Shown here: in pieces, positions 2,382-62,618 of the stretch
Layout: each line of letters begins with the position of its first letter
Position numbering within the stretch: the stretch's first letter is position 1
Origin: Lytechinus pictus
Lineage: Eukaryota
NCBI RefSeq assembly: GCF_037042905.1
Contig: NC_087245.1
Span: 11,906,001-11,970,000, forward strand
Reading direction: 5' to 3'
DNA: 64,000 nt
Position numbers and translations under genes: made by a program
The notes under the pieces: model-generated
Seen by the model: only the letters and a program-made list of their open reading frames with translations
The model's database searches: none
Told to the model about the DNA's origin: nothing

Positions 2382-4960
2382 CAGGGGCGGATCCAGCCTT
2401 AGCCAATAGGAGGGGCCCGGAATATTTTTCAGCCATATTTTCCCCGATCGGCCGCTCGAACATGATTTTTGTTTGTTTCTTTGAAGGGGTAGTCCTAATA
2501 GTTACTTCTTAGCTTTATTCTTATAAATCAACATAAATATATAATATCATAATCCTTATTTTTTAATGCGAAATTTTTTATTGAAATTTTATGTATTTTT
2601 TCCTAAAATATGAACATTCTAAGCAATGTTTGATATCCTGAAAATGATGTGTATGCAACTAAATAATTACTACGAATGCGAAGCGCGAGCAGACATTTTT
2701 GATACACGTTTTGAACTGATCGAAAAGGTAGGCCTACCTACTACTTGCAGTTAGCCATAAAGACGTTACATATTTCAACAATCAAATAATGCGAGCGCCA
2801 GGCTCGAGCTGAAATTTTTTGACATTTTAACCTAAAGAATGGAAATTCTAAGCACTTTTTGTTACTTAAACGGAATAGGTGTATAACTTAACAATTGATG
2901 CGAAAATTTCTAGATTTAGACCTAAAAACAAGACACTCTATTCATGTTTTGTAAATCATGAAAAGGATGAGTAATTGGGGATCTTTCTTACATTAATAAC
3001 GCAAGCGCAAAGCGTGAGCAAAAAATTTATATACGTTTTGAACTGATCGAAAAGGTATAGGTAGGGACAGTGATTTTCCGCGATCGCGGAAAACTGACGG
3101 AATTCACGGAAAGGGCCTTTTGAAACGGAAAGTGGCATTTCAAACGGAAAATCACGGAAAACATATTTTTCCTTAAAATACACAGAAAAGCAACAGAAAT
3201 GACTCCAAAATCTCAACAAAATATGAATATTAAATGGCCACAAAACCCCAGAAAACACGATCTCACTTCGCTACAATCATGACAATTCACACATCGTGAC
3301 TGCACTCGATATCATCACACTCGATCGTATCCTACGCCCGTACCCGGCCGGCCGGCCAGGCGCCTCTACGTTCGAAGATGTAACAGCACGATATCGAGGT
3401 CTTAAAATCCAAAATGGGGGATAGGCGAAAGTCGTTGACTGCTGATAACGATGTCCAAAAAACCCAAAATTATCGATGAAATTTCATTTGACCGTAAAAT
3501 AATGTGAAAGGTGAGGATATATTCATGTTAAATGTGTTCGTCAAAATATTTAGTGCACCCGCATAAATCCGATTAGAACGGATTCTATTTCGTTGTTGGT
3601 ACAGTGGCAGATACAATTTTTGAACAGCGCGAGTATTGTGATACTGTTATTCAATGGGTAAACTGAATTGTCAAATTTTTTTGTACACAAAGTCTATGGG
3701 GAAACAGAATTTCCGTTTTCTGACATGCTGAAACGGAATTTAAGATTTTCTGAAACAGAAAAGGCAATTTTTTTAAGCGGAAAATCACTGTCCCTATATA
3801 GGCCCTGCCTGTTAAGGACTGCTTGCACTTAGCCATGGAGACGTAATTACTTCAACAATCAAATAATGCAAGCGCAAAGCGCGAGCTGAAATTTTTTTAA
3901 ATTTCTATATAAAGAATGGAAAATTTTAATCAATATTTGTATTCGTGAACAGGATAGCTATATAACTAAATAATTGATGCGAGCTGAAAAAATTGAGATT
4001 TAGACCTAAAAACGGGACACTTTATTCATGTTTTGTAAATCATGAAAGGATGAGTAATAGGGGATCTTCTTACATTAATAATGCGAACACAAAGCGCGAG
4101 CAGATGCGCATGCGTGTTTCAGATTTAATCCTAGAATCTAGGCATTCTAAATACATCTTTTATCATGAAAATCAAAGTGAGCGAGAAGCGCGAGCTTAAA
4201 ATATTTGATATTTCGATCTAAAAAAGGGTCAATTTCAGCTCTATTTCAAGCACTTTGTATGAAAATTATGAGGTGGATATGAATCGCACTTACAGATAAT
4301 AAAGAGCTGATATTTTTCATTATTATTACTTTGAGTTTTGACATAGGACCGGGACATCCTTAGGACATGTCATCATATGAAAATGTTGACTATCTTTCTA
4401 TTCCTCTTGCTAATTAAGCGCAAGATGAAACAAAAAGGACAATTTAATTATTAAATTGATATCTTATTTATTAATGCATAATGAGGGCACTGAATTAATG
4501 CGAGTGCAAAACGCGAGCCGAAATTTTTTATAAACTGTCATGAAAAGGGGATTTTAAGTAGTTTGTTGTGTAATCAATATTGACACATACATACTGGCCA
4601 ATCAAAATGCAAGCGTGCAGCGCTAGCTGATATGTTTTGTCAATCAGGCCTGAAAAGGGATATTTTGAAAACTTTATGGAATACACGAAAATGATAAGTA
4701 CCTGATAAATCAAAATTTGCGAGCGCGCAGCCGAGCAGAAAATGTTAATATTCTGGCCATAAAACTGACATTTTACAGAGCACTTTATGAAAATCAATTT
4801 GTTAATCACACAAAATAATGAAAGTTTGATTTCCGAGGTGAAATATGTTTTGTATATTGACTTCCAAACTTGATATTTAAGCTCCATATTGAACAAGTTA
4901 TGTAAATCACCTAACAGGCAATGCAAGCGTGAAGCACGAGCGAAAATCTTATATAGTGAC
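2382..4960 (+). mobile_element. Non-autonomous DNA-transposon-like element with an internal ~110-120 bp periodic GCGAGCGCGAAGCGCGAGC-type array
   Basis: Begins CAGGGGCGGATCCAG. The motif (AT)GC(G/A)AGCGC(G/A)AAGCGCGAGC followed by an A/T run recurs at ~2677, 2791, 3001, 3868, 4083, 4180, 4500, 4608, 4719, 4922. ~2740-3050 is duplicated at ~3820-4100. The right boundary is uncertain. Confidence 0.6.
3062..3796. mobile_element. 735-bp non-autonomous DNA transposon (hAT-like TAGGG ends) with perfect 20-bp TIRs and 6-bp TSD, nested in the previous element
   Basis: TIR TAGGGACAGTGATTTTCCGC (3062-3081) / GCGGAAAATCACTGTCCCTA (3777-3796); TATAGG directly repeated at 3056-3061 and 3797-3802. Confidence 0.85.
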
Positions 4961-6524
4961 ATAAAAGATTCCTTTTGGTTTCCAAGTCTTCCCCTTATTT
5001 AAATATTTTTTATTCAATCGTCTTCCTCCTCTTCTTTTTTCGGCGATCGGAAGATGTACAAAACACTTCCACAGCACTTCAAAGAAGCAAAAGTAGTACA
5101 AATCATGTGCAAGTCTATACTCCTCAGTGTCCGTGTGTGTGTGTGTCCCCATGCTGATGTGTCTTTTGTACATAAATATGTCTCTGTAAAAACAGTTACG
5201 AAGTGTGGAAAAAGGTGGCTTAAATTTCACTTTTTTTACCTTTAGATCTAAAAATTCATGTCACAGTTTGATCTGTAATCCATAGGGTTAAGCAATCTTT
5301 GCCATTTGTGTTTTGTTCATTTTTCAAAAAGTTGGTGCAAAAATGTTGAATTTTGTGAACAGAATCTTACACCCCTAAAAGCTCTGGTCATGTGACATAT
5401 GAATATTAATGAGTATGCAATAGCTGCCAATACGTGTGTATAGAGTCAATCAGATGACAATAAAATCAAATTATTTCATGGAAAATTCATTGGAATATTA
5501 CAGTGAGTGAATAAATATTGATAAGATTATGTTAGAAAATAGTTTAGGCTCTGATTTTGTTTGAAAATAAAAAAGGTGAAATTCTAGCTAACTTTTTGAA
5601 TCACTAACTGTACTTTCTAAACCTTATTTTTTGTCCACATAGAGGTGCATATATAAAATATTTCACTACATAGGATGTTTTCAATAGCTAAGCTTTGCTG
5701 TTGGGTATATTGGCACTGACTACTAATTGTGTCAATATTTTTGCGTGTTGTTAAATTTGCGGCCGATTGGCAATTCGCAAAATCCATGAAAATAAAAACG
5801 TCGTGAAAATAAAAACGCCACGAAAAGAACAGCTTATACATGTACAGTCTTGCATTAAACTGTTTTGATCACGTACAGGAAATACAGAGCATCCCAGAAA
5901 AAGGAAAACTTGATTTCTCAGTACTCTCTCCATCACATACAAATGGTTTACGATACGTACATAAATACAGCATTTTGAAAAAAATCAGATTTTCTTATTT
6001 CAATACTGTACCTTTATGAAGATTATCACATAGATATGTACATGTATGAATTGAGCAAGCGAGGATTAAGTTTTCAAATCAATATGAAATTGCTCAAAAT
6101 AATCGGTCAAGAGTAAATGAGGATAGTAATAACTAGTACAATGTTCTTGTGTAAAAGTGATTCATTAGCATCTCTTTTGTGTCTTGTATATTGTGTTGTG
6201 GATTGTCAAACTTTGAATAATGCTGTGGATTTTAGATAGAGTGCACACACTGTCAAAAAAAACTCTCATGAGGCTAGCCCAGCAAGGCAGCAACAAGCCA
6301 AAAATATCGCAAAAAAACTTTTTAAACAAAATATAATTACATGATACAAGAATTACAAACATTTGCTAGTATGCATGTATAATTTTGCATCACTAATGAG
6401 AATTCTATATCCTAGTTGTTCGTAATCTGTCATTCATGAGAGATTGAATTAATACGTATGGATTAATATGTATGGATAAACTGGATATGCTTAGTGAAAA
6501 ATGATTTTTACTCTTTATTACACA

Positions 6525-7008
6525 TGTTTATGTGCAAGACTCTCTTATGACTTAAACTCCACCACCGTAAGTCACTTTTCACCCAATCTGGGGTTATACA
6601 TTGTAGATGTACTTAGGAGACCTGCATGTTGTGCTGCAGTCGGAGTTCACATGGTAAGGTCAAAGTTAATTTTTTAGGTCAACATTAAAGTTTATATGCA
6701 AGACTCTCATATGACACGTAACTTTACAACCATAAGTCACTTTCAAATCAAACTTGGGTTGTAGCTGTAGGCCTACTTAATTAGGAGACCTGCATGTGAT
6801 TGTGTTCGGAGGTTACATGTTAAGGTCAAAGGTGATTTTGAGGTCAACATTGAAGTTTACATGCAAGACTATATGACAAATATTAATCCGTTCCAGTTAT
6901 TTCACAATGAACTTTTTATACATTTCTGTTGCGTGTACTTGCAAATCGCGATATTTTCTGGTCATTTTCACAAGTGGGTGAGACCCAATATCGCTTATGC
7001 CTTGTTTT
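6525..7008. mobile_element. Helitron/Helentron-like non-autonomous element remnant with ~165-bp internal tandem repeats
   Basis: About 2.2 diverged copies of TTTATATGCAAGACTCTC...AAGGTCAAAG...AGGTCAACATT(A/G)AAG starting at ~6527, 6691 and 6856, followed by a GGTGAGAC...CTTGTTT end. The family assignment is inference. Confidence 0.45.
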
Positions 7009-7721
7009 TCCAAATAGCAGTACTAATTACACTCATCTTGTAAGTTTTCATGAGTGGGAGTGCTAATATCACCAAACATCCTCATTTGTACATGGAGCTT
7101 AAATTATTCAGGCCTAGATCTTAGCCTAGATTTAGTTCAATCATGGCATGTGCTATTTATAACTTTCCACTAAAAATAGTTTCATTATACAAGTTTTACA
7201 GTTCACCCATTACATGTACATAGCATGTGAGTACGACCAAGTACATGTAGGTATCACTTTATCTGCTACCTCCTTTGATTCAACTGCCATTCTGCATGGA
7301 ATTTTCAGGCTGCTCTTCATAACACTTTGACTTTGGCATGTCAGTGACTGTGTACACAATTACACACATTTCAGTAATTCGGTTACTGCGTCTAATGTAT
7401 TTTTCATATTAATGGTAAGAATAGTAATGGTAAGAATTATTGTCAATTTTATTTTTCCTGTTCAATACATGTACATGTAGTATAGGGATGTATAAGGAGT
7501 TCAACTTTCAATTTTTTTTTTAGTGGATGTCAAAAGTAATGGTCACAATTTGCATGGCTTATTTCGGAGATGCTGAAGTACCGAAATTTAATGGAAATCA
7601 TGTCAAGGTTTTGTGTCTCCCAATTCACAATCAATGCGCGGAAGTTGCACATCTATTTGTGACATCACTCATACTGAGTTTCTGAGAAATTGGTAGACCA
7701 AAGTGTAATCAACACCAAATA

Positions 7722-8743
7722 CACTCGGCAAAAAAAGTTCTTGGACACTTATAAAAATTAAAATATTCCATATAGATATTTGATTAAAGGCAAATTATTG
7801 TATGTCAACATGACCAGACAATATTCCTCTTCCAGGATAACATGAAATTTTCATGTGAACAGTCATGCATGGGTGGTTAAATGCTTTAAACAATAGCAAT
7901 GTCAGTAAAAGAAAATTGCAAGAAATGGATCAGTCAGTGCATGGCTGGTTACAGGCATTAAACAATACATGTAGCAATGTCAGTAAAAGAAAATTGCAAG
8001 AAAACGATCAGTCATTCTTTCAGTTGTGAAAGTTTATGTGGCATAAATATCCATTAAACGATAAAAGCAATCTTAAAGTCAAATACCACTCCAAAAGAGA
8101 AGAGAAAGTTATCCACCTTGGATGCATCACTATTCAATTGGAATTTTAAGTCAAAGTTAGTCGATGAAAAAAATGTCAAATTTCAGTATCTTGGCATAAG
8201 CAAAAGAAAATTCAATATATCGTTTGTCCACCCTAGCTCTGAATGAGTGCAGCACATCGACGTCACATGCTTGTCACAAGTCAGCGAATTTGCCCTGAGG
8301 TGATGTTGTCCCATTCATCCAGGAGATAACACCGGACATCTTGAAGAGTGTCTCCTGGTTGAATTCTTTGATTGACTGATTTTCCTAGCTGATCCTACAA
8401 GTGTTTAATCGGGTTCATGTCTGGTGAACAAGCGGGCCATGGATCCAAGCGCTGAATATTGTGGTGACCCAGAAATCTTTGGACAATGTTGAATGTATGC
8501 ATACAGGATGGCCATGATCATTAGCATTTGAATGGTCCATTTCTTGCAATTTTCTTTAACTGACATTGCTTTTGTTTAAAGCATTTAACCACCCATGCAT
8601 GACTGTTCACATGAAAATGTCATGTCATACTGGAAGAGGAATATTGTCTGGTCATGTTGACATACAATAATTTGCCTTTAATCAAATATCTATATGGAAT
8701 ATTTTAACTTTTATAAGTGTCCAAGAACTTTTTTTGCCGAGTG
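7722..8743 (-). mobile_element. Internally deleted Tc1/mariner transposon with ~205-bp TIRs, TA TSD and a pseudogenised transposase C-terminus
   Basis: TA|CACTCGGCAAAAAAAGTTCTTGGACACTT ... AAGTGTCCAAGAACTTTTTTTGCCGAGTG|TA. Minus strand ~8445-8216 reads DPWPACSPDMNPIKHL*DQLGKSV...LLDEWDNITSGQIR*LVTSM*RRCAALIQS*GGQTIY*, the Tc1 WPxxSPDLNPIE..W / SM.RRC.A.I...GG.T.Y signature with stops. Confidence 0.92.
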
Positions 8744-9039
8744 TATTATAGTGTTTCTCTTTCAAAGTGAATATTAAGAACTATACATGTTTCCACTTCA
8801 TTTTTCATATATAATTCTACACTCTACAGATTAATTTTTTTTCTCTCTTCGTTTGGGATTCATCATTCAATTTTTTTCCATTTAATTTGTCAATTCTAAA
8901 ACATGGCCCATGTGGTCTTGCACGTCTTTAATTAAAATTGGTCAGCACAAAACCCTCTTATAATGCTGCATGGTTTTTATTATGAAATGCACGAATTGAA
9001 ACCATGATATTTCAACCATTGTTCAGATCAATATTTAAC

Positions 9040-9207
9040 TGCACTATTCGTATAAGAGTAGGGGGAAACCCCGGTGTAGTGGTCCACCTGCATTCCCCCC
9101 AATCAGTTATATCGGGAGGAGAGACCTGCGGGTCATAGTGATTCAGTTCGCTTTTCGCTTCCCAGGCACAGGTGACGCCAAACAAATAATAATAATAATA
9201 ATAATAA
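9040..9207 (+). mobile_element. Probable SINE 3' portion with (AAT)n tail
   Basis: GC-richer block ending ...CACAGGTGACGCCAAACAAATAATAATAATAAT; no A/B boxes seen. Confidence 0.35.
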
Positions 9208-10445
9208 TCTTTGCCACTATTTAACATTATGGTCTCTAAAAAGTACTAGACCTCTAATTTCATGGAATTTGGTTTACAACTCAATTTCTTACAAAAAATA
9301 ATGATTGGATGCACAGTATGATCAACCTTCACAACAAAATAATTTATTCCTCAGCAGACCCAATAATGGGTCCAAAGGGTTGGAATAAGAATGAATGTAT
9401 GGACTCTGGTTTTTATCAATACGATTAACCAAATTTCAGAGGAACTCAACTTTACCTAATATTGTTGAGGTGCATTTAGTTTGATATGAATTACATACAT
9501 GTCTATCCAAGATAACTGCCAAACCAAGCCAAATATTATCAATCACCACAAACTTGTTATCCTTGTGATCTATTGTAATGAGTCATTCGTTTATAAACTT
9601 GGAATTGGTGACTGAAATCAATGACACATCAGTTATATATTTGTTTTACAGCCACATGTCACAAATATTGAAAACCACTGAACATATCATGCTAAAGGGA
9701 ACAGAAAGTTGAGCTATTTATAGACCAATTCTGTTTCAACACTTCATTTTTGGTTACTTTTCATAGTAATTTCATATATGACCAAATCTGTAGCTTCCTT
9801 GAAGCTTCACACACATACTTGGATTTTCGTAACTCTATGGAAATCCATCAGTGTCATAATTTTTTCTACAGGAAATTTGCAAAATGTCCTTTGTAAATAA
9901 AGGAGAACACACCAAATTGTCAAGATATTAATTGATTTATGGATATACAATCGTATCTAGAATTTTTTTTTGAACAATCATGACTTTGCTGGCTTTCCAT
10001 AGTTGCGATTGATTGGATCAATTGCAACTCTTTGTAAGACAGGCCCCTGTTCAGTATGCAGACATCATATAACACTCGAGGAAACATACTGAAATTATTA
10101 GTTCTGTAGCTTGTGGTAATAACTAATGTATGGTATGACAACAAAAGGCTCTACCGACATTCATGTAGCAACACACCTGATTTATTACATAATAAATTTT
10201 ATGTTCTTTTTTAGAATTTGGAAGCTTTTAAACTACCTGATGTGAGCAGCAGTGTTTTGAAACTGGATAAGATGGATAAACTGGATATGATCCAATACCG
10301 CCTGAAAGCCTTTATGATCAATTACATACAATGTACACTGTACGTGAACATTAAAACACACTTGCAACTAGTTGTGATTGTTTGTAATTGAGTGCAGAAG
10401 ATTTTGTAACATATGGTCACACAACCAATTGTGAAACCACTTTAA

Positions 10446-11041
10446 AGGGATGGTCCAGGCTGAAGATAATTAAATCTCAATTTAAATAGAGTAAAATTCA
10501 CGGAGCAAAATGCTGAAAATTTGATCAAAATCGGATAACAAATAAAGTTATTGAATTTTAAAGATATGCATTATTCTGGTGAAACAGTTCTAGGCATGTC
10601 TTCATGAATATTCATTAGTTGGGCTGATAATGTCATATTCCCACTTGTTCTTTTGTATTTTATTATTTGAAATTGGGTTTATTCAAAACATTTTCTACCA
10701 AGAACTAAAACAATTGGATTGACAACTGATTAAGTGCATTAATTATTTATTGCCGCGACTTATTTCATCATAATGGAGAATACACATGTATGAAAAAATT
10801 AAACAAGTATGATTTCATGTAATAATATAAGAAAAAGAAAAGTGGGGATATGACATCATCAGCCCACCTAATGAGTATTCATGACGATGTGCATATAACT
10901 GCTTTCACTAAATATTGATAAACTTTAAAATTCAATAATTTTGTTATTTGTTATCCGATTTTGATGAATTTTTCAGCATTTTGCTCTGTGAATTTTACTC
11001 TATTTATTTAGATATAAATATTTTCAGCCCGGACCATCCCT
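10446..11041. mobile_element. Kolobok/T2-like MITE (TTAA TSD, AGG...CCT ends), largely palindromic
   Basis: TTAA|AGGGATGGTCCAGGCTGAA ... TTCAGCCCGGACCATCCCT|TTAA; long internal inverted symmetry, e.g. GCAAAATGCTGAAAATTTGATCAAAATCGGATAACAAATAA vs TTATTTGTTATCCGATTTTGATGAATTTTCAGCATTTTGC. Confidence 0.85.
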
Positions 11042-11189
11042 TTAAGGAGTGTGCAAGTAGATAAATCAGTTTCCACTTCATATAGTATTATAAAGCATCT
11101 TGATCTTGTTATTCTTAAAACAATCTCCTTCAATGTTTTATCCCCCTTGCAGATCTTGACTGAGTAATATAAAGGAGTTCTCAATAAAG

Positions 11190-13928
11190 ATGGGGTATGA
11201 GGTGGCCCGATTTGTTGGTGAGGTGGATGAAGAACTCATCTGTCCAATCTGTAGTGCAGTGCTTGAAGACCCTCAGCAGGTATGTAGGCTATTTCAAAGA
11301 TCTCTCTTGTTGCTTTTCGGTCATTCCTTTTGGCTTGGGGAAATAAATCGCAAGATGTCCATGTAATATTTCATTTCACTATGAAGATTAGTTCAGATGT
11401 TACCAAGTTTTGATACTGTGTCAATGTGAGGATAGTCTCTCACCATTGGGTTCTTTAGTTATATTTTCTTGATTTTATTTTGTAAAGATATCAGAAAGAT
11501 GTACTGTATATCATCTTATCTGATTTTCATATAATATAACAAAATGTATTTTACATTGTGATAGTTTTTAAGTCAAAGTTCATGTTCATTGTACATGTAG
11601 CCTACATACAAATTAGAACAAATTAATGCAGACTTGAGATTTTGAATTGATACAAAAGTTGGAGGCCTTGGACCTGGGCTTGCGACTGTAATTGCACGCA
11701 TATTTGGGTGTTGCCCGTGTGCATGCAAGTCTTTTAAAAAGTTGTTCAATCTCAATATCAGGCAAATTTAAAATACATGTTTATCCAGTACAAATAAAAA
11801 TAAGGTAAACCATTGAGTCAATAAAATGACTTGCATTGATACACATATAGAAAAAGAAATATCACCATTGGCAGTGAGGCATGGAATATGTAAATATCAA
11901 ACAAGGCAACAAGCTCATGTCACGTTACCCTACACGTATGATGCAAGGTTGGCTTTAAATAGATGAAGTTTGTTCAAAGTTTGTCCGGGGTCATGCTGGA
12001 GAAAGAGTTTAAATCAAATGCAACTTATTTTTCAACCAATGAGCTGTGTGCATTTAATTAGATTTTTTTAAGTTGTGTTACATGTAAAATGCAATTCTGC
12101 AATAGATCCCTGGTCATGAGATTGAAATGTGGATGAAACTGGCCTAAAATGTTTTTAACGATTAGTTATGTTGCACCCAAGATTTGGTAGACCTATATGC
12201 TGTACACGTTTACAAGAAAAACTTTGAAGTCTCTGAATGAAATATGACAATAGTCATTTTTCCCATGCAAGGCAAGGCCATATTATTACTAGCAAAACAA
12301 GGAAGTTTTATTTGATTATGAGTATGTAGAACTACTCCATGCAGGCATGCATTCTAGAAAGTGAATTACATGTATACCAACCACTTCAGTTACAGTATAC
12401 TGCATGTATGAATTTTATCACACTCAACTCCTCAAAACCCGGGATTGAATCTATTACGAACTTATTTTCCGATTACCATAATGATACACAGTATGTTGGG
12501 TCCCTTGATTTTTGCATGTGCATCATCTTAGTATGCAATAGCTCCTGAAAATGCATTTTTGTGTTTGAGCTTTGTTCCGCATGGATTTCAGAATATGATC
12601 CTCTTTGATACAAAACGTTATTTGACTAGAAATTTTCAACATAGTTGTTGGTTAGCCATCTGTAACTGATGGCAGATTTCTGAATAAGCTATCATTACAC
12701 AGTATGATAGTTATCTATGAACTGAACTCGAATCATTGAAACTCAGATGATTTTATTATTGCAATTTGCCTGTCACTATCAGTTCACTGCACATGTATAT
12801 TGCAGCATGAAGAGTATCACTAATGTCCTACTAACATACACAATGTATGACTTGGGAAGTTGTTAGAATAAAGTATGTAAACTCCATGAGACATTCTTTG
12901 AAAATAATCGAAATGATAAAATGTATTCTACATACTTGCTGGATTATGATATTAATAATTTAGTGTAATATACCATTGGTTTATTAAATAGTCTTTTTGA
13001 ACTTATACATGTAGAGGTCGAGTATTGACAGCATACATTAATTTTCATTCTCTTTTAGGCACCAGAATGTGAACATGCTTTTTGTTCTACCTGCATCCAA
13101 GAATGGTTATCTCGTCAGCAGACCTGCCCTGTAGACCGTAACCACATAACATCTCAGCAGCTCAAACCTGTGCCTCGTATCTTGCGCAACCTCCTTGCCC
13201 GCCTCCAGATTCGCTGCGACAACGAAGGCTTCGGCTGTGCCTCCGTTGTCCGTTTAGATTCCCTGCAGCAGCACCTTCAGGAATGCGAGCACAACCCCAA
13301 GCGTCCTATACAGTGTGACAAAGGATGTGGTATGGTCATCCCCAAGGATGAGGTCAAAGACCACAATTGCGTCCGGGAGTTGAGGCTCCTGGTACAGAAC
13401 CAGTCCAACAAGCTTGGTGAGCAGGAAACGGAATTGACAGAGATCCGAAGCCAACTGTCGGAGCATCGTCGCGAGATGCAGATGTTGAAAGAGTACATCC
13501 GCGCCATACGGATCTCCAACCCAAACACAAGCCCTTCAGTCCGTGCGATCGAGGATGAAATTGAGAACAATGAAGTGGTGCGATGGGTGAACTCCATGCC
13601 CCTTGCTCGTGTTACCCGCTGGGGCGGGATGATTTCCACACCGGACGTTGTTCTTCAGACAGTCATCAAGCGTTCCCTCCTTGAAAGTCACTGTCCAGCT
13701 CATATTGTTGCAGAACTAATGGAGAATGCCCATGAGCGCAACTGGCCACCAGGGCTTAGCACCCTTGAGACACGTCAGATGAATCGCCACACCTATGAAC
13801 AATACGTCTGTCGTAGGATACCAAGTAAGCAGGCAGTGCTTGTGATGGCATGTGACAATGCTCATATGGGAGAAGACTTCACATTGGACCCTGGTTTGGT
13901 CATGATCTTTGCACATGGGATAGAATGA
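11190..13928 (+). CDS. RNF41: E3 ubiquitin-protein ligase NRDP1 (RING finger, TRAF/SIAH-type zinc finger, coiled coil, C-terminal USP8-interacting domain), 319 aa
   Basis: Coding exon 11190-11279 (MGYEVARFVGEVDEELICPICSAVLEDPQQ, donor GTATGT, acceptor TTGCAG ending 11152). Coding exon 13059-13928 (APECEHAFCSTCIQEWLSRQQTCPVDR...ARVTRWGGMISTPD...NAHERNWPPGLSTLETRQMNR...PGLVMIFAHGIE*). Strongly matches the vertebrate RNF41 sequence as recalled. Upstream non-coding exon(s) not placed. Confidence 0.97.
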
Positions 13929-16542
13929 TATCCTCATAGTAGAATGCAATATTCTCAAACAATAGAAAAGAAACTTGATCATTCTTTGCAATTGAAGACT
14001 TATGGTAGTATAAGCTCAGGTTTTGAGCAGTTGAAGCAGTACCTGCTCATTTTTTATTTGAGTTTAATATGTGTCTCTTGGATTCTAACTTATTGTGGAC
14101 AGTATAGTATTTTTTCTGGCACAATGTTTAGTTGTAAAATGCAGCCTGTTTGGCTTCCTGTACATGTATATTACACATCTGCCTTGAGGGAGTTATTTTG
14201 TTGCATTCTTTATTGGTAGAGAATTACAAGTTTAATTATATGCAATTTGAATTGTGTTCTAGCAGATTTGAGATGATATGTTGCTTGCTGAGAGAATACT
14301 TTTCATAGTTTGATATTTAAAGACTAAGTATTTGTTTGACCTTTGAAACATACCGGGGTATATGTTTCTAAATAAATAAAGGGAATTTAAGGCTTAGCAG
14401 TAATTGGGACAATAATCAATGCTTAAATGGAGCAATGGTTGGCTATTAATTTTATAAACAAAAGGATGAATATTATCTTTATGTATACGTGTCTTGCCTG
14501 CGGCTGTTGCAAATTTATTCCTATTTCAGTGTGTTTATTTGGCTTGCCGTAATGTGACGTATAGATTTATATGTTACTATGTACTTGCTTTATAGTAAAC
14601 TCTTTAAATGGACTTTATGGAATAATGTATTACATGGTTTTTATACATGTACACCATTTTTAGTTTCTGGTGTTGAAATTTGGAGTCTTCTTTCATTTAC
14701 TGAATGCTATAAAAGACTAAGTTACCGGATAGATAATATATATATTTTAAATTCTAAACAAGTTTACATTTCTACATGTAAATGGGAAGGTTGATCAGGG
14801 AAGAGTGTTTTCACAAACAAAATTGCTCTCAGCCATTCAGCCACAAGGATTTTAGTAGTTAACAACATTTTTCAGAGAAAATCACTGACAAATCACTTCA
14901 TGAAACTCTAACTATGTCATAATCAATCTCTGGACTCTGCCTTTCTTTAGGAGTCAGACATTGCTAGAAATTTTGGATAGATTACATGAAATCTGTCATC
15001 ATTTACAGGTCAATCTTAGGCCACAAACATTTTTGTTTTGTTTTGAAATTGCAAATTATTAGATGGATTGCCAGTCTGCATTTTGATAAAGTTTTCAAAT
15101 GATAAATTTATTTGCAACACCCCTCTTAGTCTTTTTTTTTTAATCTCCTCTATCTTTAACTGCTTCTAATTAGTGCTCTCAGTTATATACTCTTCTGATA
15201 TGTTGCAAGTGGAGCATTTTGATATATTTAGAAGATCTTAGATAGTACTAAGGTCTGGACTTAAGTGAACTACAGAAGGGGTTCATTTACAGACGCGGTT
15301 GAGCACGTCAGGTATTGCTTTGTGTTTAACAGGTCTGGTAATGGAAAAGTCTCTCAATGTATTGTAAATTGACGACAAAGTGCAACTTTCCCCCTAAAAA
15401 AATATAGAAAACACTGATTACTGTAAAATTCAGTATTGCTGCTGAGGTGATAAAACTGGGATCTGAAACCAGTTGCAATATTCAAGAGAGTGACAAAACA
15501 TGGCTTCCTTCCTGTATCAATGGGATAGTCTCTTGTTTGACATAACATTCATGAAACTTTCAATGTAGAGAAAGTGAGATTTGGACAGGAGCTGAGATGA
15601 ACTATTATGGTCACTTAGCCATTCAGGGCACAGCAGGCAATAAGTTTCAAGGAATCCATCAAAGTTTTTAGTGGATGGCAAAGTTAGCATCATAGTACTT
15701 AACTCATACAAAAGAGCCAATGCCAGTGTGACACAACTTTAATTTGGTTGGCTGTGTATGGTAATGATATGGCTTTCAGGATTATTTATATATTTTTCCT
15801 CTACTCAAAATCTTATGTTTTATTGAGAATGTAACATAATTTGTGCATACCATTATTCAAACTTTTTGGAGAACTGAATACTTGCAGAATGCCTGCCCAT
15901 TGGGTTGTGGACAAAGGCTTGAAGTATCACCTACATGTTAGCTTAATGTGTGTAGCTGAATAACGCTAGAGTGCTATGTTCTCATTTTCCCAATTTTAAT
16001 TTTCAAAAGAAAAAAAATCAAGGATGGTCGTGTTGTAATATACCTCTGCATATTAGACAGTACTTCATTGTAGTACTGTAGTACAACCAAGTGAAGACAA
16101 AAGGGATGGTTTTGATAGACTAATACTTTCTAAAGGTACATACATTCATTTCTCGAACCTAAAATAAACAAAAAATGTAGGGTGTGTATTACTTTGCTAG
16201 TCTTCGTCAGGTTTGACGAAGCTTGTAGCCTAGCAAGCGAAAGCTTACCAAAAAACAATTCATGATTGTGAAATAAATAATGTTTTTCTCAAGTCAAGAT
16301 AGTTGTGAGCAATTACATTCAAATGAAGATTTGGATCTTGAGTGCTTCATTTGATAATGAAAAGTACATGATTGATTTTATATTCAATTTGTATTTGATC
16401 AAATGTAACTCATAGGAAGATATGGGCTCGGACTTTGTAAAGTTAACAATTACATGTTTTCAATAGTTTATTCAGAGAAATAGGATCTATTGTGGCATTA
16501 AACTTTCATCCTCTTGGTTAATTTATATTGGTCTGAATAATT

Positions 16543-16793
16543 GTAATAATAATAATGATTTGATAATAATAACAATAATAATAATAATAATTATAATAAT
16601 AATAATAATTATAATAATAATAATAATGATGATAATAATAATGATAATAATAATAATAATAGTAATAATAATGATAATAATAATAATGATAATAATAATA
16701 AAATTAATAATAATAATGATAATGATAATAATAATAATGATAATAAAAGTAATAATAATAATATTAATAATAATAATTATAATAATAATAATA
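16543..16793. repeat. (AAT)n imperfect microsatellite
   Basis: ~250 bp of AAT/GAT triplets; source of the poly-Ile ORF. Probably lies within the RNF41 3' UTR. Confidence 0.95.
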
Positions 16794-19168
16794 GAAAGCC
16801 ATAGCCTAATTTTACCTGTGGATCAGATAATATAACTGCTTCAAACAATGGCATGATGCATCAAGTATGTTCTTGTACTCTATTATATTTAGACCCTTGG
16901 AATTGATTTAAGTTTCAATAAGGTTCTGTACACAGAGACTACTCCCATGGTGTGGTATTCCTTTTCTTTGGCACTGAATTCCTATTTTGATTTCTTTCAA
17001 GGTTTGAAAACAAAAATAATGGAGACTGTTGTGTAAATACTGAATAGCATTTGCCATTTCATTGAAGCTATTATCTGCAAGCAGTGGTGTAGAATAAGGA
17101 CTCCAGTTACAACCATACATGCATTGCCAACTTTTAGAAATGATTGCATAATCAAGAACTTTTGATGAACCTGCATATATTTGTTTGTATTCTTATAGCA
17201 TCTGTCATAACAGTCTAACTTAGTCTAACGTAAATGTGTATTGCACTTATGTTTTGACTGCTTGTTTCAAAAATTTAGTTTGTAATGAAATAAGAAGTGA
17301 TAACAAATGCAGAAGCCAGAAGGCTCCATGTACATGTACTGTAGTCTATGTATAAATGTGGACTAAATTTTGTTCTATCTCATTGTTACCATAGTTTAAT
17401 GTGAGAATTTCTTTGATTTAATCTTATAGATGGTTTTAAGATTTAAACCAAGCTTTCTTTAAATATCTGTTTTATTTTGGCTGTTGAATATGATTTCAAA
17501 TAGTTTCTTGCCTTAAGATGATAAATACTTTGATTTTACTTAATTCTTATATCATGTATATGTCTAACTTGAAAGTTGTGTGTACATGGAGTCGGAATAC
17601 AGTGACCGACAAAAAAAAAAAACTTTGTTTTCCTTCTAATCATGATCATTTGTCAAAACAGGACATGATATCTCAAAGGATTTCACCCAAATAAATATAG
17701 AACACAAACAAAGGAGCAGCAACATTCAACACATAACCAATCGATTATCCTTAATTTGTAACTTATGCAGATCACTCATGCCTTTTAGCTGAAAGCAATT
17801 TTGCTCTCTCTGCATACTGCGTACAAGATACCATTGTTTATACTGTTATAGACTACATGTATGTACATGTATGTACCATCTGTTTGCTTGTGTTGAAAAT
17901 GTCTATCCATTCAAATTAGCCACTGAAGATAGAAACAACACAAATACTATTAGTTTTCTACTTGAATTATTGTATGCTTTTTGTTTGTTTTTTTAAACAA
18001 GAAATGACATCACAATCTGTTGATTGGTATATAGGATGGTTTGTAATTTGAAAAGTTCAATTGAATCACATGTTTATGTCCAGTTTTAAAGGCCTCTTCA
18101 AATTCAGCTTCACATTATTTTTTTGTCTTCTTTGAAATACATTAATTAAATTGATCAAATTCTAGTAGTTTGATTTATTCAATGCCCATTGCAAAAAGAG
18201 ATGTGTTTAAACACAACTATTGAAAAAAAATCAAATCTTTGAATCAACTCTTCTGAATGTTTATTAGTTTTCTCTGAATTTTTAAATTTTGTTTGATTGC
18301 AACTATTTCTGCAATGGGCCCCTGAACACTTTAGACCACTTCAAACATACCAGCAAAACTTCTCATTAGAAATTAGTAGTTGTTTCCTCAGTAAGTTTAT
18401 TGTTGCCTGTTGAGATTTGTACAGTTACAAAAAATTGAAGACACAAATAAATGATTTGATGGAATTTAAATGAAATATTTAATCAAATCATTGTATGCCA
18501 GGTTTATTACAATTGACTGTTTATTGGTGGTATTTTTGTATGTAACAGGGCCTTAAAATTAAACATTGTCATCTGGTTAAGAGCTTTACAACTCAAGCAA
18601 GCAATTTATTCACAGACAAGAAAGAAAAGAATGATTACTTCTCTAGAACGGAGGAAAAATCAGTAATTAGTGTCAATACTGTAAAAAAATACATTTTATA
18701 GAATAACATAAGATGATGATATTTTGGTTGCTAAATTTGTAAATTATGATATCTTTTTTTACTTTGTGACATACAAATGTCAGCAAATGTCAGTATGAGT
18801 AAATGAGCAACTATACTTCACCGTCATTTGATCTATTGGTTATTTTGCTTCTCTGTGTTTCGGGGTTAGTTGTTATTAATTGGTGGAATTTACTTGTTTT
18901 TGTGCAAATATTTACTGAATACTGTTCATATACTGTGTAATATGTCCTTATTGACTTATATAATAAAATACTTCTTGGCGTATTAAATACTGCATATATG
19001 AGACTATTAGTTGTTTAGTTTTGAAGATTCTGACATCAATATCTCTGAGATGATTGGGACTTGGGGTGTTTCATAAAGCTAATTCCAAGTTTATGAACGA
19101 CTTTAAAAATGACTGGAACATAGTTTTGGTTGCAGCATCAGATATAATCAATCATCAATCCCCATTAA

Positions 19169-19769
19169 AGGGGAATCCAGCCTTAGTCATAAAGTGTTGT
19201 GTTGGTAAGGAGAAAATTAAATTTAACAGAATGGTGAAAGTTTGAAAGAAATCGGACAAGCAATAAGAAAGTTAAAGCTGCTTTAAAATTGAGATCACTA
19301 ATACTATGTAGTTTTCAAATTGGCAACTGGGTAAGTAAATTATGACAAGGGGCAAGGACAACTTACCCATAGGCCATGTACTTTATTATCAGGGATTTGT
19401 GATTTTCTCCTAAGTACCAATTCCCCTGGGGCAGTAATCTAAATATAACCCAGGTAGTATATTGTTTTATGTCCTCCTGAAAGAAAAATATATATTGAAA
19501 TAAAACTTTTGGGAAAAATGACATTTTAGCCATAATATGTATTGGAGTACATGGAAGAGTAGTCCTTGCCTTACATCACTAATCTATGGCATCCCATATG
19601 CGGCCAATTTGAAGTCTCCATGGGTATAGTGATTACCAATATTTACAACTTTTAAAAATTCCTAACTTTCTTGTTGTTTGTCCGATATTGTTCAAACTTT
19701 CACCTATCAACTTGTCTGATTTTTTCTTTTCCTTATAAAAACAAGTTTTTATTTGGGTTGGATTCCCCT
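19169..19769. mobile_element. Kolobok/T2-like MITE (TTAA TSD) nested in an older GGGGTGTTTCATAAAG-type MITE (~19063-19893)
   Basis: TTAA|AGGGGAATCCAGCC ... GGTTGGATTCCCCT|TTAA. Outer inverted ends GTGTTTCATAAAGCT (~19066) and AGCTATGAAACAC (~19881-19893). Confidence 0.8.
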
Positions 19770-29348: not shown

Positions 29349-29381
<33 letters not shown>

Positions 29382-32410: not shown

Positions 32411-32462
32411 CACTGACACTCTTGGAAAGGGTAATAGAAAGGACTTGAGCAACACGTATGGT

Positions 32463-36640: not shown

Positions 36641-48313
<11,673 letters not shown>

Positions 48314-48630: not shown

Positions 48631-49731
48631 TATAAATAAGCATAAGCCACAGAATGAAAAATTATGATAACAATAACAAAATTATAAGCAAAGAGGAACG
48701 CGCCTTTGTACTGTTAAGAAAAAGACCCGATCTATTAATGTTCATTAATATGAACCTGACAACGGCAACTCGAAAAGAGTGATACAGCTTAGTGGAAACG
48801 CTCATAATAGCAAAGGCCACTTATCTGCCAATTAATTGAATTATAATATATAGGCCTAGTACACTTGACATGAAATTATGAACAGATTAAACCGAATCAA
48901 GAATAGGAGATTATAGTTCTGAGTATATTATATATACAAGAACCCAAATATTTTTTAATAATTATTTTTATGTGAGATAGAATTTAAATAACTGGTAACT
49001 AAAATCATATCACTTGAAATGGAACTTATTGACTAGTAATATCGAATGACACTATGAATGTGTTTCTAGACCATGCCTCACAGGAGTGTCACTGAATACA
49101 CTCCATTCCCTTGGAAGCCATATTTGATATTTTGACAGGGGCTATTGAAAATATAATAATATTGCAACATAACGTTTGAAATTACTTTACTGGTCACAAC
49201 TCATGATAATGTGTTCGAACAATCTAATCTTCAATTTTTGTCTGTTATGTTGCACGTTTGCGGAAGTTAATCATTTTTTTATATTGTTAAAGACAGTGTC
49301 CAATCATCAACGCGTATTTTCAACACAAATCAGTTTCAGTTTTCCCATGAAACTGGCGGAATCACGCATCGCCATCAAAGACAACGGTGCACCTGTGAAG
49401 TCTTCTGTACTTCTTCAGAAGTGAAAAGCTGCATTTGTTGTTCGTTCTTGAAAATATTATTGATTTCGGCTCTCTCACTTTGCTCGCTTACAAATTTCCA
49501 AAGTAGTATGCCGTATCAAAATCTCAACGCCTTCTCAAAAATGGCCTCATTACGCCACTGGCATGACTAGTGACAACAAAACAAATGTTATGTCCCTTTC
49601 CGGGCTAATATTGTTTTTCTTATTCCGATTTTTCATTATTTTGAATAATTTCTTTTTGTCCCTTACATCCTGTGTTTGACACCTTATAAAAATCATGTTA
49701 TAACGCTCAAGAATATAGATTGAAAACTTAC

Positions 49732-52485: not shown

Positions 52486-52537
<52 letters not shown>

Positions 52538-52639: not shown

Positions 52640-52683
<44 letters not shown>

Positions 52684-57553: not shown

Positions 57554-59767
57554 AAAAAATTGCACTCCCCAAAATGTGTTCCGTTATTTTGGAAGTCTTG
57601 TCGCAATGTTCAACATTTTAAACAATTTGAAATTATCATCATTTTTTTAATTTTACATTATCAAAACAGACATTAAAAACTTCATTTAAAGGAAGTTTAA
57701 ATCTCATTGGGTTCTTTTCAAAATCTTTTCTAAGATTCTGATAAACGAATTAGAACAAACTTTGAAAATGTCTGCTCACTGAAGTCTGCCATACAAAATT
57801 ATGTACGGATTAATTACATTTCTGAAGCGAATGTGTTAGATGTAAATTGATCTGCGACCAATTTTTTTATGAACGGTTTAAAAAATTAGAAAGGTTGAAT
57901 GCTAGGAGGGAATCAGTAATGTAGCAAGGCAACGGAATGAAATCGCTTGCTTTGTTACACAAATGGAAAACAATTATATTTTTTAATTGACTATTATAAT
58001 GGTAGAAGTATTCCAAGAACTGTGCACCCTTTTGGTCTAAAGTCTTTTTTATTACCAAATTATTTTCATCCGAATTCTGTCTTTATTTCAAAATGCAAAG
58101 TCATACAACATGATTAGGCACTTCAATTTTCAATTTGTTAGCAATATATACCTTCAAGAGATAAGTTGTGATTTTTAAAGGACAAAAAATATATTTTAAA
58201 TGTGTAAAGAAGTGAGTACTTTTTTTTATTATTGTGTGTGAAACATGTCCGAAAATGGTTGAACGAGTACTAGTATTGAAAGACAATTTTTCATCTTTTA
58301 GAGATAAATGTAAACGTATAAGAGGATTTCGATTACAAATCAAGAATGTCAAATTACAATTTCTGATTATGTTTCTTGTATTTATATTTCTCATTTTATT
58401 TTTCATTTTTCTTTAGGGGGGGAGAGTGCATGGTATAAAAAACATAATCAAGGGTAAACAAATATACAACATAAATTGTTTATAGGTAGAAGTGAGTGTA
58501 CCATGATATTTTTTAAGTTTTAAAAAGAATGTGCTAAAGAGAAAATTATGACTATGTTGCGTTAACTTTCATTGCTTAAAGACCTCATTCTGAAGCTAAT
58601 AGACATACATATTGTCACATTGTGCTAAAGTATGTCATAAATCTTTGAGGATGTGCGCTTAGGCCTACATAACGAAGATATGGAACTTTTTTAAGAGTTT
58701 CATACTTTTTTGAAGCCGTAATCTATCATCCGAGACCATGGATCATATCGGATTCATCCATGGTCTGACCGAGAAAAGCAATGCGAGATATTGCCTGTAT
58801 AAGTGCGGGGGCAAGACAGCTTCCTTATTGTTTTAAATCACTGCTGACAAATGCTATCATCAACCCTCAGTAATCGTATAGAGAAGGAAGCCTGAGAGAT
58901 TAACCAACTGATTGATTTGGTATTGAGAAATATGACTATGGAGATAATCCCTTACACCTTGGTATTTCAAAGGTGTACCTTGACCTATACTAAAGAAGGG
59001 ATATCGTGTTATTTTGGAATCGTCTGATGTGGATGCTTTTCTGACAAAAAAACAGATTTATTCTTTACAAAATCAAATACTGTAGTACTCTCATAAATTC
59101 CCCTAAACCAAAGAAAAGTTAATTAAACTAATATAGTTACATCACTATTTTTTTATTCAAGTAAAAAAATTGGGGGCCAATAAAAAAAAGTTTCGAAGAA
59201 AGGGCAGTGAGAATCCTCAAGAAATAGAATTATCAAGAAAATCGAGTCAGGTCGGGGTGGTGACTTGCTCTTCGTGAAAACGTGCCACAATTTGGGAAAT
59301 CGTTTTAATCTCTGCATTCTTATTTTAAGCGTCTATTTATTTTTCTTATTTGGCGGCAGTCATCATGGTCATATTTTGAATAAAGTAAGAAGATAACCGA
59401 ACAATTCGGACCAACTCTTCGGAAAAACTTTTGATAATTTAATCACAGTTTAGTGGAACGTTTTATCTGGTCTATAAATATCACAACAAGGTTTAGAATA
59501 TAATAAGGGTTACCAACAATTCTTGTTTGGATTTAATTCTTCAATATAAAACCGATTTACTAACACCTGTAGATTTTTATTTTCTACCATACCAGTATTT
59601 TTTTAATTCTGATCTAAAGAATTAAAATTACATTCATCTCTTGGTATGATTAGCTCTATGTATATGTCATCGTAAAACAACGTTATAATATGCAATATGG
59701 AGCAGATTTTGGTGTAATACAATACTTATTCTGATCAGACCAAGATAATTTCACCTAATTCATGACA

Positions 59768-60130
59768 CGTACAAAATTGTCCATAACTTTCGTAACTTCA
59801 AAGAAAAGGTATTCGTTTATCACATTGAATTGTGACATTAGAAATACAATTTTTGACAATTGCTCTGAATAAAAAGAGGACTTAATACAGCTATATTCAA
59901 ATATTTTATTTTAGGCCTACCTTAATTATTCAGAACAATTATCAAAACTTGTACTTCTATAATTTCACAATTCCATGTGATAAATGAACACAAAAAGTTA
60001 CAAAAGTTAATTATTTTAGGCCTACCTTAATTACTCAGAACAATTATCAAAACTTGTACTTCTATAATTTCACAATTCCATGTGATAAATGAATACAAAA
60101 AGTTACAAAAGTTACGGAAACTATTGTACC
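59768..60130. repeat. Foldback element with one arm tandemly duplicated (2 x 105 bp)
   Basis: 59906-60010 and 60011-60114 are near-identical direct repeats; ~59770-59872 is a diverged reverse complement of that unit. Confidence 0.8.
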
Positions 60131-61589
60131 TGGCAAGTAGCGACCGAGAGAGAAAATGCTCGAATTTCAATAGTAAAAGCTAAAGTATATACTTGGCGAC
60201 ATGAATGGAATACTGCTTGTTTACGATCATAGGACCTATTATACAGTAGGCCTATCCCGAGGCATATATCTTTTTTTTTCTTTCTGGATGTAAAATGGGG
60301 GGGGGGGGCTTCAGCGATTTTTTTTTTCGGGAGGGTTCAGTCACGGTCCCCAAAGCTCACTATATAATATAGGTTGTACATGTCTTTATTTTCAAAATGC
60401 ATTATTTGTTGTATTTTGTGGGAATTTCAATATATTTTAATAATTTACCCCCATAATGAAACAGTTCATTTCAGATTAAAAAAACGGAGGTATAAAGAGG
60501 GAAATATGTGAAAGAAATTAAAGATATATAAAAGCTTTGATTAAAATTGATATAAAAATACACAACTTTGGTGCAGACTTTACCTCGGCCACCCAATTAT
60601 ATTTTGTTGATTCTTGTCGCCAGTGAATGGTCGACAGACTTGACACCTGTTATGATTTCGATGATTTAATTGGTCCGATTATCCCATAAGCTAATGATTA
60701 ATTTAGATTGTCACTGAAACATATGTGACTAAGTGTTGAGATATCAATTCAATAATGTGCGACTCCATTACCCAAATCAGAAGTTTCCCTCTTGATACAG
60801 CACCCTCCCCTTTCTAGGAGATATCTTTTGGCTGATGCTGTCACGCTAATGGACAAATACCCGGTTAATATTTAAGCTCACTATAGTAATATCATAATCC
60901 GTACTCCATTATATCAATAGTGCCAACATCATGCAAATCCTGATATGATCCTGGCGAAAAATGATATTGGCGTGCAGAAAGCCTCTCTTTATAATGCTAA
61001 TAATCCCTGATCTCTTTTCAGAAATAAATTTTAGTTTTAAAAACCCCACAAAAATACTAATATTGATTTATTTAGATATAATGGTTAAATCTGTTCCCAT
61101 ATCATTTTTATTTTATTACGCGTGCGCGTGTGTATGGTTGTGGTGGTGGTGGGGGTCTTAAATGCGTTTTGATAATCTGACTGACCTGAAACGAAATTGC
61201 TATGTTGCATGACTCTCTTTCTTACTTCAAGTCTAAAGATACTGGTTCAAATTTATCAAAATCCGATGGATTTAAAAAAAAATATCTGAGACTTCAAATA
61301 TGTTTTTTTGCTCCCAAAACCTCCCATAAAATTTAAGCATTTGATCAGGCATAAAAGAAGTCTTAAAGACTGAGATAAAAAAATAAAAATAAAAAGGGCC
61401 TATATCTTAAGGTCTCGGGAATTTAGAAAGATGGTAATTCAAAATACGGAAATGAATTGTAATTATAAACGAGCATGGTTCATCCAAAATCATTTCTTAT
61501 TGTCATTTCCAGGGAGGTTGGCGGGGGGGGGGGGTGATCACTCACAGGGTCATATTCATTTGGAAGGTATTACCAGCAAAATTTTTGAA

Positions 61590-62618
61590 TCACTGGGTGA
61601 GCGCGCGAAGCGCGCTCAGTTGCTAGTTATTCTGACCTAATAGAGACATTTTAAGCAATGTCATTGAACGGATATGTATCTCACTGATCAAATAATGCGA
61701 GCGCGAAGCGCGAGCTGAATTTTTTTTATATTCACACTTAAAAAGGGACATGATAATCAAATTTGTGTAATAATGATAGTCACCTGTCTCGCTAAACAAT
61801 GCGAACGCGAAGCGCGAGCTGAAATTTTCGTATATTTTGACCCCAAACAGCGAGATTTTAAGGAATATATTTTAGGAATCCATTAAGAGTATGCATATCT
61901 CACCATAGTCATCTAATGCGAGTGCCAAGCGCTTGCTGATTTTATTAGAATTACATCTGAACACATGAAACACTTTTTGTAGTCATTGCAATCATGATTA
62001 TCATGCGCATCTCACTAATCAAATATTGCGAGCGTGAAGCGCGAGCAGAAAATTTTTGATATTCAGATCAGAAAAAGGACATTTTAAGGACTGATTTTAG
62101 GAATTCATGAAGAGCAGACATATCTCACCGATCCACTAATGCGAACGTAATCACGGACAGGAAATGTTTTTTTTATATACGAAGACCTTAACATGGGGCA
62201 ATCACTTTTTTAGTTATGTAAAAGAAGCATAGGCCTATGTCACTACATAAAACAATGATAACTCAAGTGCTAGGAAATATATTTGGTTTATATTGACTTG
62301 AAAACGGGATGTTTTAGTACAACATGATTATATATCACGTTAAACAGACAATGCGAGCACCAGGAACAATGAAGACGTAGGCCCTGGGCAAATTATGTTT
62401 CATAAAGTTATGATAAAAATGTTTCTTATGTAATGTAACATAACATAATTATAATATAATATAACATTATAATGAATAATACTTTCTTCTTTCCCACTAC
62501 GTTTCTTTTCCTTTCTCCCTCTTTTCTCTTTTTCCCCATTTCCCCGGTTTTTTTTTTGTCAGCCGATGGCGGGAGCATGTGCCTCCCATGCCCCCCCCCC
62601 CCCGTAGTTACGCCACTG
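61590..62618 (+). mobile_element. Second copy of the GCGAGCGCGAAGCGCGAGC periodic-array element, right end ...TTACGCCACTG
   Basis: Motif at ~61598, 61697, 61801, 61918, 62028, 62141, 62353; terminal CCCCCCGTAGTTACGCCACTG. Related CAGTGGCG/CACTGGCG termini occur at ~45697, 52918, 53701 and 63030-63039. Confidence 0.6.

Follow-up and report, generated by a model that had tools for sequence, protein, structure and literature searches.

A TA-bounded palindromic octamer in excess in a sea urchin genomic window: a putative transposon excision scar

Why does one palindromic octamer, TAGGCCTA, recur in a stretch of sea urchin DNA where chance would place it less than once? The stretch (the window) is the whole 64,000 nucleotides analysed from Lytechinus pictus (assembly GCF_037042905.1, contig NC_087245.1, positions 11,906,001 to 11,970,000 of the forward strand), and it has a G+C content of 35%. 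We found 11 exact copies of TAGGCCTA in it. An earlier reading of this DNA (the original prediction) had listed 11 sites, estimated that fewer than one was expected in 64 kb and proposed that the word is the footprint of a TA-targeting element with GG...CC ends. All of the sites were confirmed at their coordinates, and the expectation that we computed was 0.3-0.7. In 100 dinucleotide shuffles the mean was 0.36 copies with a maximum of 2, and none of the 100 reached 11; Markov models of orders 0-3 gave 0.38-0.68, and masking of satellites gave 0.28. The word is about thirtyfold above chance in the window, and the probability of at least 10 copies multiplied by the 32,896 octamers is 2e-8. The copies of TAGGCCTA are:

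2729..2736, within one unit of a dispersed repeat of high copy number; a homologous TAGGCCCT occupies 3799 in the paralogous unit
6768..6775, in unit 2 of a local duplication of ~165 bp; the sole copy in a CpG-poor domain, with weak support for insertion
23058..23065, ~700 bp past an LDLa exon; without a paralogue control
35013..35020, between CUB and LDLa exons of a minus-strand gene and so presumably intronic; without a paralogue control
39667..39674, between two CUB exons and so presumably intronic; without a paralogue control
48851..48858, without a paralogue control
58660..58667, in DNA that is single-copy in a related urchin (depth 19-97)
59912..59919, within the right arm of a decayed palindrome (59763-60135), where alignment of the mirror arm across the word opens no 6-base gap
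60017..60024, duplicate of 59912 through a 105-bp tandem duplication and so not counted as a separate event
60247..60254, in low-copy DNA; without a paralogue control
62230..62237, in a unit of a high-copy repeat array

The copies at 59912 and 60017 are in two units of one 105-bp tandem duplication that are 98% identical, leaving ten rather than 11 independent sites. The density is ~1.6 per 10 kb in the window. Four of the sites (23058, 35013, 39667 and 48851) lie outside any repeat detected by comparing the window with itself.

The excess is a property of the exact word. The twelve one-mismatch classes of TAGGCCTA together were seen 16 times against 11.9 expected, which is background, showing that both TA ends and the core are required. 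Among the 16 palindromes of the form TA-xy-y'x'-TA, only TAGGCCTA (11 against 0.28 expected) and a sister word, TACATGTA (20 against 1.85), were in excess. Only four of the 256 palindromic octamers reached P < 0.001, and the two besides these had counts of just 2 and 3. The core with its adjoining letters, AGGCCT, is TA-bounded on both sides in 11 of its 17 occurrences. By contrast, the surrounding DNA is unrelated from site to site, with a mean similarity of 12.6 across 45 pairs of 60-base flanks compared with 13.1 for random TA flanks. The base 5' of TA is biased: a purine is found in 16 of 20 half-sites (54% in the background; P = 0.014) and G in 8 of 20 (16% in the background; P = 0.010), both tests being post hoc with strands folded. 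The flanks read R-TA..TA-Y, with T..A on both sides in none, and in three copies the palindrome is prolonged outward by two to three further pairs or by one pair. The sharp excess of the exact word, neighbours at background, unrelated flanks and the flank bias together support a site-directed process that writes a fixed four-letter core at TA. An age estimate from the one-mismatch neighbours was too noisy to use (16 seen, compared with 11.9 under no decay and 23 at steady state; P = 0.07).

We consider it somewhat better than even (a probability of about 0.55) that TAGGCCTA mostly arises by a change from TA to TA-GGCC-TA and is the excision scar of a TA-targeting cut-and-paste DNA transposon with GG..CC or GGC..GCC ends. 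Such an element would insert at R-TA-Y with duplication of the TA. Upon excision, the transposase would cut a few bases inside the element ends and leave 3' overhangs on the flanks. These could be joined with the GG and CC of GG..CC ends filled in and both two-base overhangs kept, or the three-base GGC overhangs of GGC..GCC ends could anneal over their terminal GC; either route would give an identical six-base gain. Full insertions would be lost or purged while the near-neutral scars accumulate. A minority of the 11 copies are secondary, including the one tandem duplicate and at least one that is older than the duplication of its host repeat.

A process of this kind has a known counterpart in the Tc1/mariner (IS630-Tc1-mariner) transposons. 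Tc1/mariner elements take TA as their target and duplicate it, and at excision one strand is cut 2-3 bases inside the element ends (PMC2170065); end-joining then leaves a footprint of the first or last 2-4 element bases between two TA (PMC6943129). The footprints of Sleeping Beauty are TACAGTA/TACTGTA and vary between cell types (PMC6943129, PMC7913693, PMC8151067, PMC2874221). Like such footprints, TAGGCCTA has two TA around a few fixed bases irrespective of the flank and shows a palindromic flank bias. It also matches TACATGTA in form, and for that word the window contains a Tc1-like element. In Caenorhabditis elegans the scar of Tc1 and Tc3 is TA-CA-TG-TA. TAGGCCTA differs in having a GG/CC rather than a CA/TG core, in its six-base gain and in the lack of a donor seen in the window, and it is a standing genomic word whereas Sleeping Beauty footprints are an experimental product. 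By analogy, TAGGCCTA may work like a Tc1/mariner footprint and its membership in that group is putative. It was probably left by transposon excision, with a core of a new type.

At the four sites that have a paralogue in the window, we scored the alignment to the paralogue once as it stands and once with the six letters taken out, using four scoring schemes. At 6768, removing them shifted the score by +2, +3.5, -1 and +1, and this place was among the four best of 64 removal places, three of those four being one event shifted. At 62230, removal changed the score by 0 to +3.5 and 0 to +5 relative to two sibling units, and against two of the three siblings the place was among the four best of 64-69. 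Two of the four sites with a paralogue lean toward a net insertion (6768 and 62230) and two lean against it (2729 and 59912). The original prediction had offered the units at 6768 and 62230 as paralogue controls in which TA became TA-GG-CC-TA. The lean toward a six-base insertion at these two sites suggests this change, but they are not the clean pairs that had been described, and the other two sites do not suggest it. The words at 2729 and 59912 may be older scars common to both copies or may be native to the repeat; judged from its paralogous unit, the 2729 copy appears either to predate the repeat duplication or to be repeat-borne.

Unit 1 of the duplication that holds 6768 has TA-CATTG-TA (6597-6605) where unit 2 appears to have plain TA. 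This could be a seven-base scar of another end type, and its word class was seen 4 times against 1.2 expected. TAGGCCCT words occur five times (3799, 43147, 47053, 61395 and 62378), two of them in a high-copy repeat family, and one is a full TAGGCCCTA, a possible 3+2 scar variant.

We also drew on a related urchin, ~6-9% diverged from the window and represented by nine of 16 listed runs, all of one organism, that contained 8-13% of the sampled window words; none of the listed runs came from the same population as the window. Contigs from four of the runs (three samples), which differ from the window at ~6-11% of letters, were compared with window positions 52800-64000, a section with five of the 11 sites. 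Among the joints listed (15 of 1430), ten contigs from three of the four runs (two samples) exit the window at 62170 and re-enter it at 62236, where the second TA of the 62230 site begins, which is the pattern expected of copies without TAGGCC. Also among the joints listed, letters ending in TAGGCCC join units of the 62230 repeat family at high depth in two runs, indicating that this family natively carries a near-word too. In the related urchin the DNA at 58660, 59912 and 60247 is single- or low-copy, and the 62230 family is thousands of times deeper. A 4.4-kb contig skips 102 letters at the 59906-60114 duplication, suggesting that the 105-bp duplication is younger than the species split. None of the best-supported 12 of 330 indel rows fell at a TAGGCCTA site, and all of those rows were in repeats. 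Gap arithmetic on the pieces listed (32 of 146,888) left room for a six-base absence at 58660, 59912 and 60247, with no excess over the background of 3-7% left-out letters.

Several of our results weigh against an excision scar. No TA-flanked GG..CC inverted-repeat element was found among 141 TAGG x 204 CCTA end pairs in the 64-kb window, so the scars, at ten independent sites, outnumber the elements. In the portions available, the literature examined describes no animal TA-targeting family with GG ends, the TA-duplicating GG type being the fungal PHISTA only. The product does not vary, and it lacks the partial forms usual in end-joining, which is heterogeneous (PMC6943129). The partial scars that error-prone joining would leave showed no excess in the window, with 6 copies of TAGGCTA plus TAGCCTA against 3.6 expected and 11 of TAGGTA plus TACCTA against 27 expected. 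The gains at 6768 and 62230 are small (at most +5) and vary in sign with scoring or sibling, and against the third sibling unit removal at 62230 changed the score by 0 to -3. MAFFT aligned 6768 with substitutions and a 4-base gap, and neither it nor 62230 received a 6-base gap. Anchor-to-anchor spacing in the siblings of 62230 is 20-21 letters, closer to the 22 of the filled unit than to the 16 that an empty form would have. Removal of the six letters cost 7.5-15 points at 2729 and 5-6 points at 59912 under all four scorings. One related-urchin contig of near-single-copy depth covers 62229-62495 with four letters left out in total and hence has no 6-base gap at 62230; the 62230 word may be common to the related urchin, or the spanning contig may be a paralogue. 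Of the original proposal, the TA-directed, fixed-core process is supported. Among known mechanisms a transposon footprint best suits a word of this form and is the putative one here; the searches yielded neither a donor nor a clean pair of empty and filled copies.

The original prediction had named no donor in the window, and our targeted search of inverted-repeat ends likewise found none. Four TAGG/CCTA pairs match at 12 or more of 14 terminal letters; one belongs to an element with a 6-bp duplication and three lie in a hairpin or palindrome. Two elements need description:

3062..3796, non-autonomous inverted-repeat element of 735 bp whose ends are TAGGG..CCCTA and whose 6-bp target duplication (3056-3061, 3797-3802) is perfect
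7722..8743, minus strand, TA-flanked Tc1-like element of 1,022 bp with an internal deletion, 219-bp arms and CAC..GTG ends

We rejected the 735-bp element as the donor because the identical six letters on both sides form a 6-bp duplication rather than a TA duplication. Duplications of 6 bp are made by hAT6 and IS3EU (PMC12730594, PMC10045372), and the element, which sits in a dispersed-repeat unit, is hAT6- or IS3EU-like by the length of its duplication. A 55-bp hairpin at 975-1031 was also rejected because its inverted repeat runs outward beyond the TA. The region from 184 to 1126 is a 287-bp tandem repeat (2.9 copies) of nested inverted repeats and ends in a 226-bp palindrome that encloses a 55-bp hairpin. 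In the Tc1-like element, one frame is weakly similar to the Sleeping Beauty transposase (E = 0.007) and is the sole transposase remnant that we found; its four short frames had no match in Pfam, and the protein search yielded no candidate. With its CA..TG ends this element is a plausible representative of the source class for TACATGTA and is not a candidate for TAGGCCTA. One TACATGTA (7966) lies within it (7720-8745), and the element itself is in the CpG-poor domain. There are related inverted-repeat elements at 10442-11045, 19165-19773, 47430-48025, 51486-52053 and 22042-23015, three of which have TTAAAG ends. We take the TTAAAG-ended elements of the window to be Kolobok-like.

Other transposon groups share features with the proposed donor. 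In the PHIS superfamily (PIF/Harbinger, ISL2EU, Pangu and Nuwa) the ends usually start with GG or GGG, and the animal groups duplicate TWA, AT, ANT, CWG or TNA (PMC4482050). A PHIS lineage with TA duplications, PHISTA, occurs in rust fungi (PMC12730594). PHISTA would yield TAGGCCTA if its ends were GG..CC, and in the parts of the sources available it is described from fungi only. For the targets of the animal groups, the predicted scars are absent from the window or at background, unlike TAGGCCTA. The footprint of PIF/Harbinger or Zator, with TWA on both sides, was not found in the window (TAAGGCCTAA, 0; TTAGGCCTTA, 0; AAGGCCTA/TAGGCCTT, 0). For ISL2EU/Pangu, with A-AT-T or ANT around GG..CC, the window has no AATGGCCATT, three ATGGCCAT against 1.0-1.7 expected and one A.TGGCCA.T. 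The Kolobok footprint, with TTAA on both sides, is likewise missing from the window (TTAAGGCCTTAA, 0; AAGGCCTT, 0). Zator has GG ends, and the target of Kolobok is TTAA. Both groups resemble the TAGGCCTA source in having GG- or AGG-type ends, and TTAAAG-ended elements are common in the window, but their scars would be TAAGGCCTAA, TTAGGCCTTA or words containing AAGGCCTT, each with 0 copies. Zator makes a 3-bp duplication (PMC10045372). Sailor, in the part of its description available, has ends that start with GT or CC and TATA duplications. We rejected a collapsed hAT or IS3EU element with fused TAGG..CCTA ends since inspection of the 11 contexts showed no flanking direct repeat of 6-8 bp. No description of TAGGCCTA as a genomic scar was present among the literature matches listed, as judged by titles and the start of abstracts, with subscription journals, Repbase reports and supplements outside the scope.

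The fixed letters could also be written without a donor, with host repair, templated insertion or a nuclease with a fixed patch adding GGCCTA (or AGGCCT between T and A) at TA. The surplus of scars over elements and the uniform product would suit this explanation, and the parse is ambiguous because TA+GGCC+TA and T+AGGCCT+A are the same letters. We nevertheless regard it as unlikely, since the window contains a TA-flanked CA..TG element that matches the sister word TACATGTA, which favours the transposon route, and no such enzyme is known to us. A different view is that the excess reflects repeat content, with TAGGCCTA carried by repeats or formed by substitution from near-words in dispersed repeats. 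The copy at 2729 has the homologous TAGGCCCT in its paralogous unit, with another at 62378 in its family, the TAGGCCC joints connect units of this family, and the family natively contains TAGACCTA (2917 and 4001). In addition, 60017 is a duplicate, and no gap is needed to align 59912 with its mirror arm. However, the flanks of the ten sites are unrelated, the DNA at 58660 and 59912-60247 is single- or low-copy in the related urchin, and four sites are in no repeat found by self-comparison. Repeat carriage would account for 2-4 sites rather than ten and is improbable as the main cause.

We think it very unlikely that TAGGCCTA is a selected binding site, that is, a palindromic motif for a transcription factor or chromatin protein. 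Palindromes suit dimeric binders, and the exact word is favoured over its neighbours. Yet binding sites normally tolerate variants and the one-mismatch classes are at background; nor do the copies cluster at promoters, being found in introns, repeats and a recent tandem duplicate. By title and start of abstract, no relevant AGGCCT motif linked to sea urchin was found among the literature matches listed. The perfect palindrome and the three copies extended outward would also fit a generic correction of palindromes by template switching, but other palindromic octamers are at background. Decay of CpG in a precursor word has no route to TAGGCCTA, and the precursors of TACATGTA are absent or rare (TACGCGTA, 0; TACGTGTA plus TACACGTA, 1). 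Both of these general mechanisms are extremely improbable explanations for the word.

Does the word also avoid methylated DNA? The original prediction had added to the footprint that its source prefers unmethylated or open DNA and that the two words suggest two chromatin-partitioned systems. Extended to unmethylated or open germline DNA for TAGGCCTA and methylated gene bodies for TACATGTA, this claim is compatible with an excision scar, and we hold it as a tentative possibility. It concerns the following features:

5000..20000, plus strand, CpG-poor domain around RNF41/NRDP1, with a CpG observed/expected ratio (o/e) of 0.20-0.59 in 2-kb bins from 6001 to 20000
11190..11282 and 13059..13928, plus strand, RNF41/NRDP1 coding exons, by protein match

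Non-satellite bins outside the domain have a CpG o/e of 0.57-1.28, and the depletion starts at ~5000-6000. On the basis of its CpG loss we infer that the domain is a methylated gene body; invertebrate gene-body methylation is mosaic (PMC11292947). The tests of distribution leave out 60017 and two TACATGTA copies in adjacent repeats (7472 and 17864); one of them also omits the TACATGTA at 44179, a microsatellite. The domain holds 25% of the non-satellite TA and one of the ten independent TAGGCCTA sites (binomial P = 0.24; circular shift P = 0.36). It holds 15 of 18 independent TACATGTA sites (P = 3e-7; circular shift P = 0.046, for one domain only). Densities per 10 kb inside and outside the domain were 0.67 and 2.07 for TAGGCCTA, the direction that a preference for unmethylated DNA predicts, and 10 and 0.69 for TACATGTA. 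The two words differ in distribution (Fisher P = 3e-4). Local CpG o/e differed from that of random TA for TACATGTA (P = 3e-5) and not for TAGGCCTA (P = 0.29, rank test); it was below 0.5 at 0 of 10 TAGGCCTA and 11 of 19 TACATGTA sites. The positions of TAGGCCTA did not differ from those of TA (Kolmogorov-Smirnov P = 0.24), and at the outside rate 3.1 copies were expected inside the domain where one was seen (P = 0.18). With ten sites no outcome could give P < 0.05, and the power to detect a 3-fold depletion is 65% at 30 sites and 93% at 60.

The distribution had been described as complementary. The words do differ, but avoidance by TAGGCCTA does not follow (P = 0.24), and the contrast arises because TACATGTA crowds into one CpG-poor domain. 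Since TAGGCCTA is indistinguishable from random TA, the case for two chromatin-partitioned systems comes from one domain, its methylation read from CpG loss, and from TACATGTA. The words TAGGCTA/TAGCCTA (7122, 11285, 11598, 16226, 16802 and 44936) also argue against a partition, with five of the six inside the domain. At 11592-11604 one of these words shares a TA with TACATGTA, as serial scars at one TA would. It had been said that only one copy of TAGGCCTA lies inside the RNF41 body, which is true if the body means the CpG-poor block at ~5000-20000; that copy, 6768, is upstream of the first coding exon at 11190. Two copies (35013 and 39667) lie within a gene span, so any contrast would be between methylated and unmethylated rather than genic and intergenic DNA. 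The broader idea of two TA-directed systems that read chromatin in opposite ways, with TACATGTA written in methylated gene bodies and TAGGCCTA in unmethylated DNA by a novel GG-ended animal lineage or a donor-free enzyme, seems doubtful to us.

DNA transposons do not normally leave a countable record of their excision, and a fixed word at more than 1 per 10 kb would be one. If TAGGCCTA is an excision scar, it points to a TA-targeting GG-ended family, and a "motif" of this kind in urchin cis-regulatory scans would be mutational rather than functional. If it also avoided methylated DNA, the long-debated steering of transposon traffic by invertebrate gene-body methylation would be testable from assemblies alone. 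With two systems, the local ratio of TAGGCCTA to TACATGTA would preserve a fossil map of germline methylation in the sequence itself, and past excisions would number some 10^5 per genome (an extrapolation from the window with an assumed genome size). The window establishes the excess of TAGGCCTA; the consequences for a donor family, urchin motifs and methylation go beyond it.

A search by repeat motif for further sea urchin DNA gave one metagenome contig of 1.7 kb. It too carries one TAGGCCTA (L001:1135, L001:1465), a single small hint of host association. One viral contig retrieved by the repeat motif has neither octamer, and no prokaryotic contigs had the motif. In the viral contigs L063 (9 copies in 10.4 kb), L043 and L066, a motif of ~20 letters is centred on TAGGCCTA and is mostly between reading frames. 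This motif resembles a repeated promoter or operator and has no bearing on the urchin word. Nested-scar patterns in viral contigs (16 and 50 loci) were set aside as irrelevant because the 12 richest are 78-96% long reading frames with coding or operator-like repeats.

RNF41/NRDP1 is 95% identical to its best match, a protein cluster with a sea urchin representative. Identity to the proteins of other echinoderms and of hemichordates is 74-78%, the two next-best matches being echinoderm proteins at 78% and 76%. The gene span that includes 35013 and 39667 is:

23780..43636 at least, minus strand, exons encoding a subtilisin-like protease that carries CUB and LDLa domains, presumably one gene; CpG-normal

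Within this span there is a strongly C-skewed 34-bp minisatellite of 96 copies (25976-29255). The span also holds, at 30602-31660 on the minus strand, a 352-codon acidic open frame rich in Thr and Asp that has no Pfam family and is probably a large linker exon.

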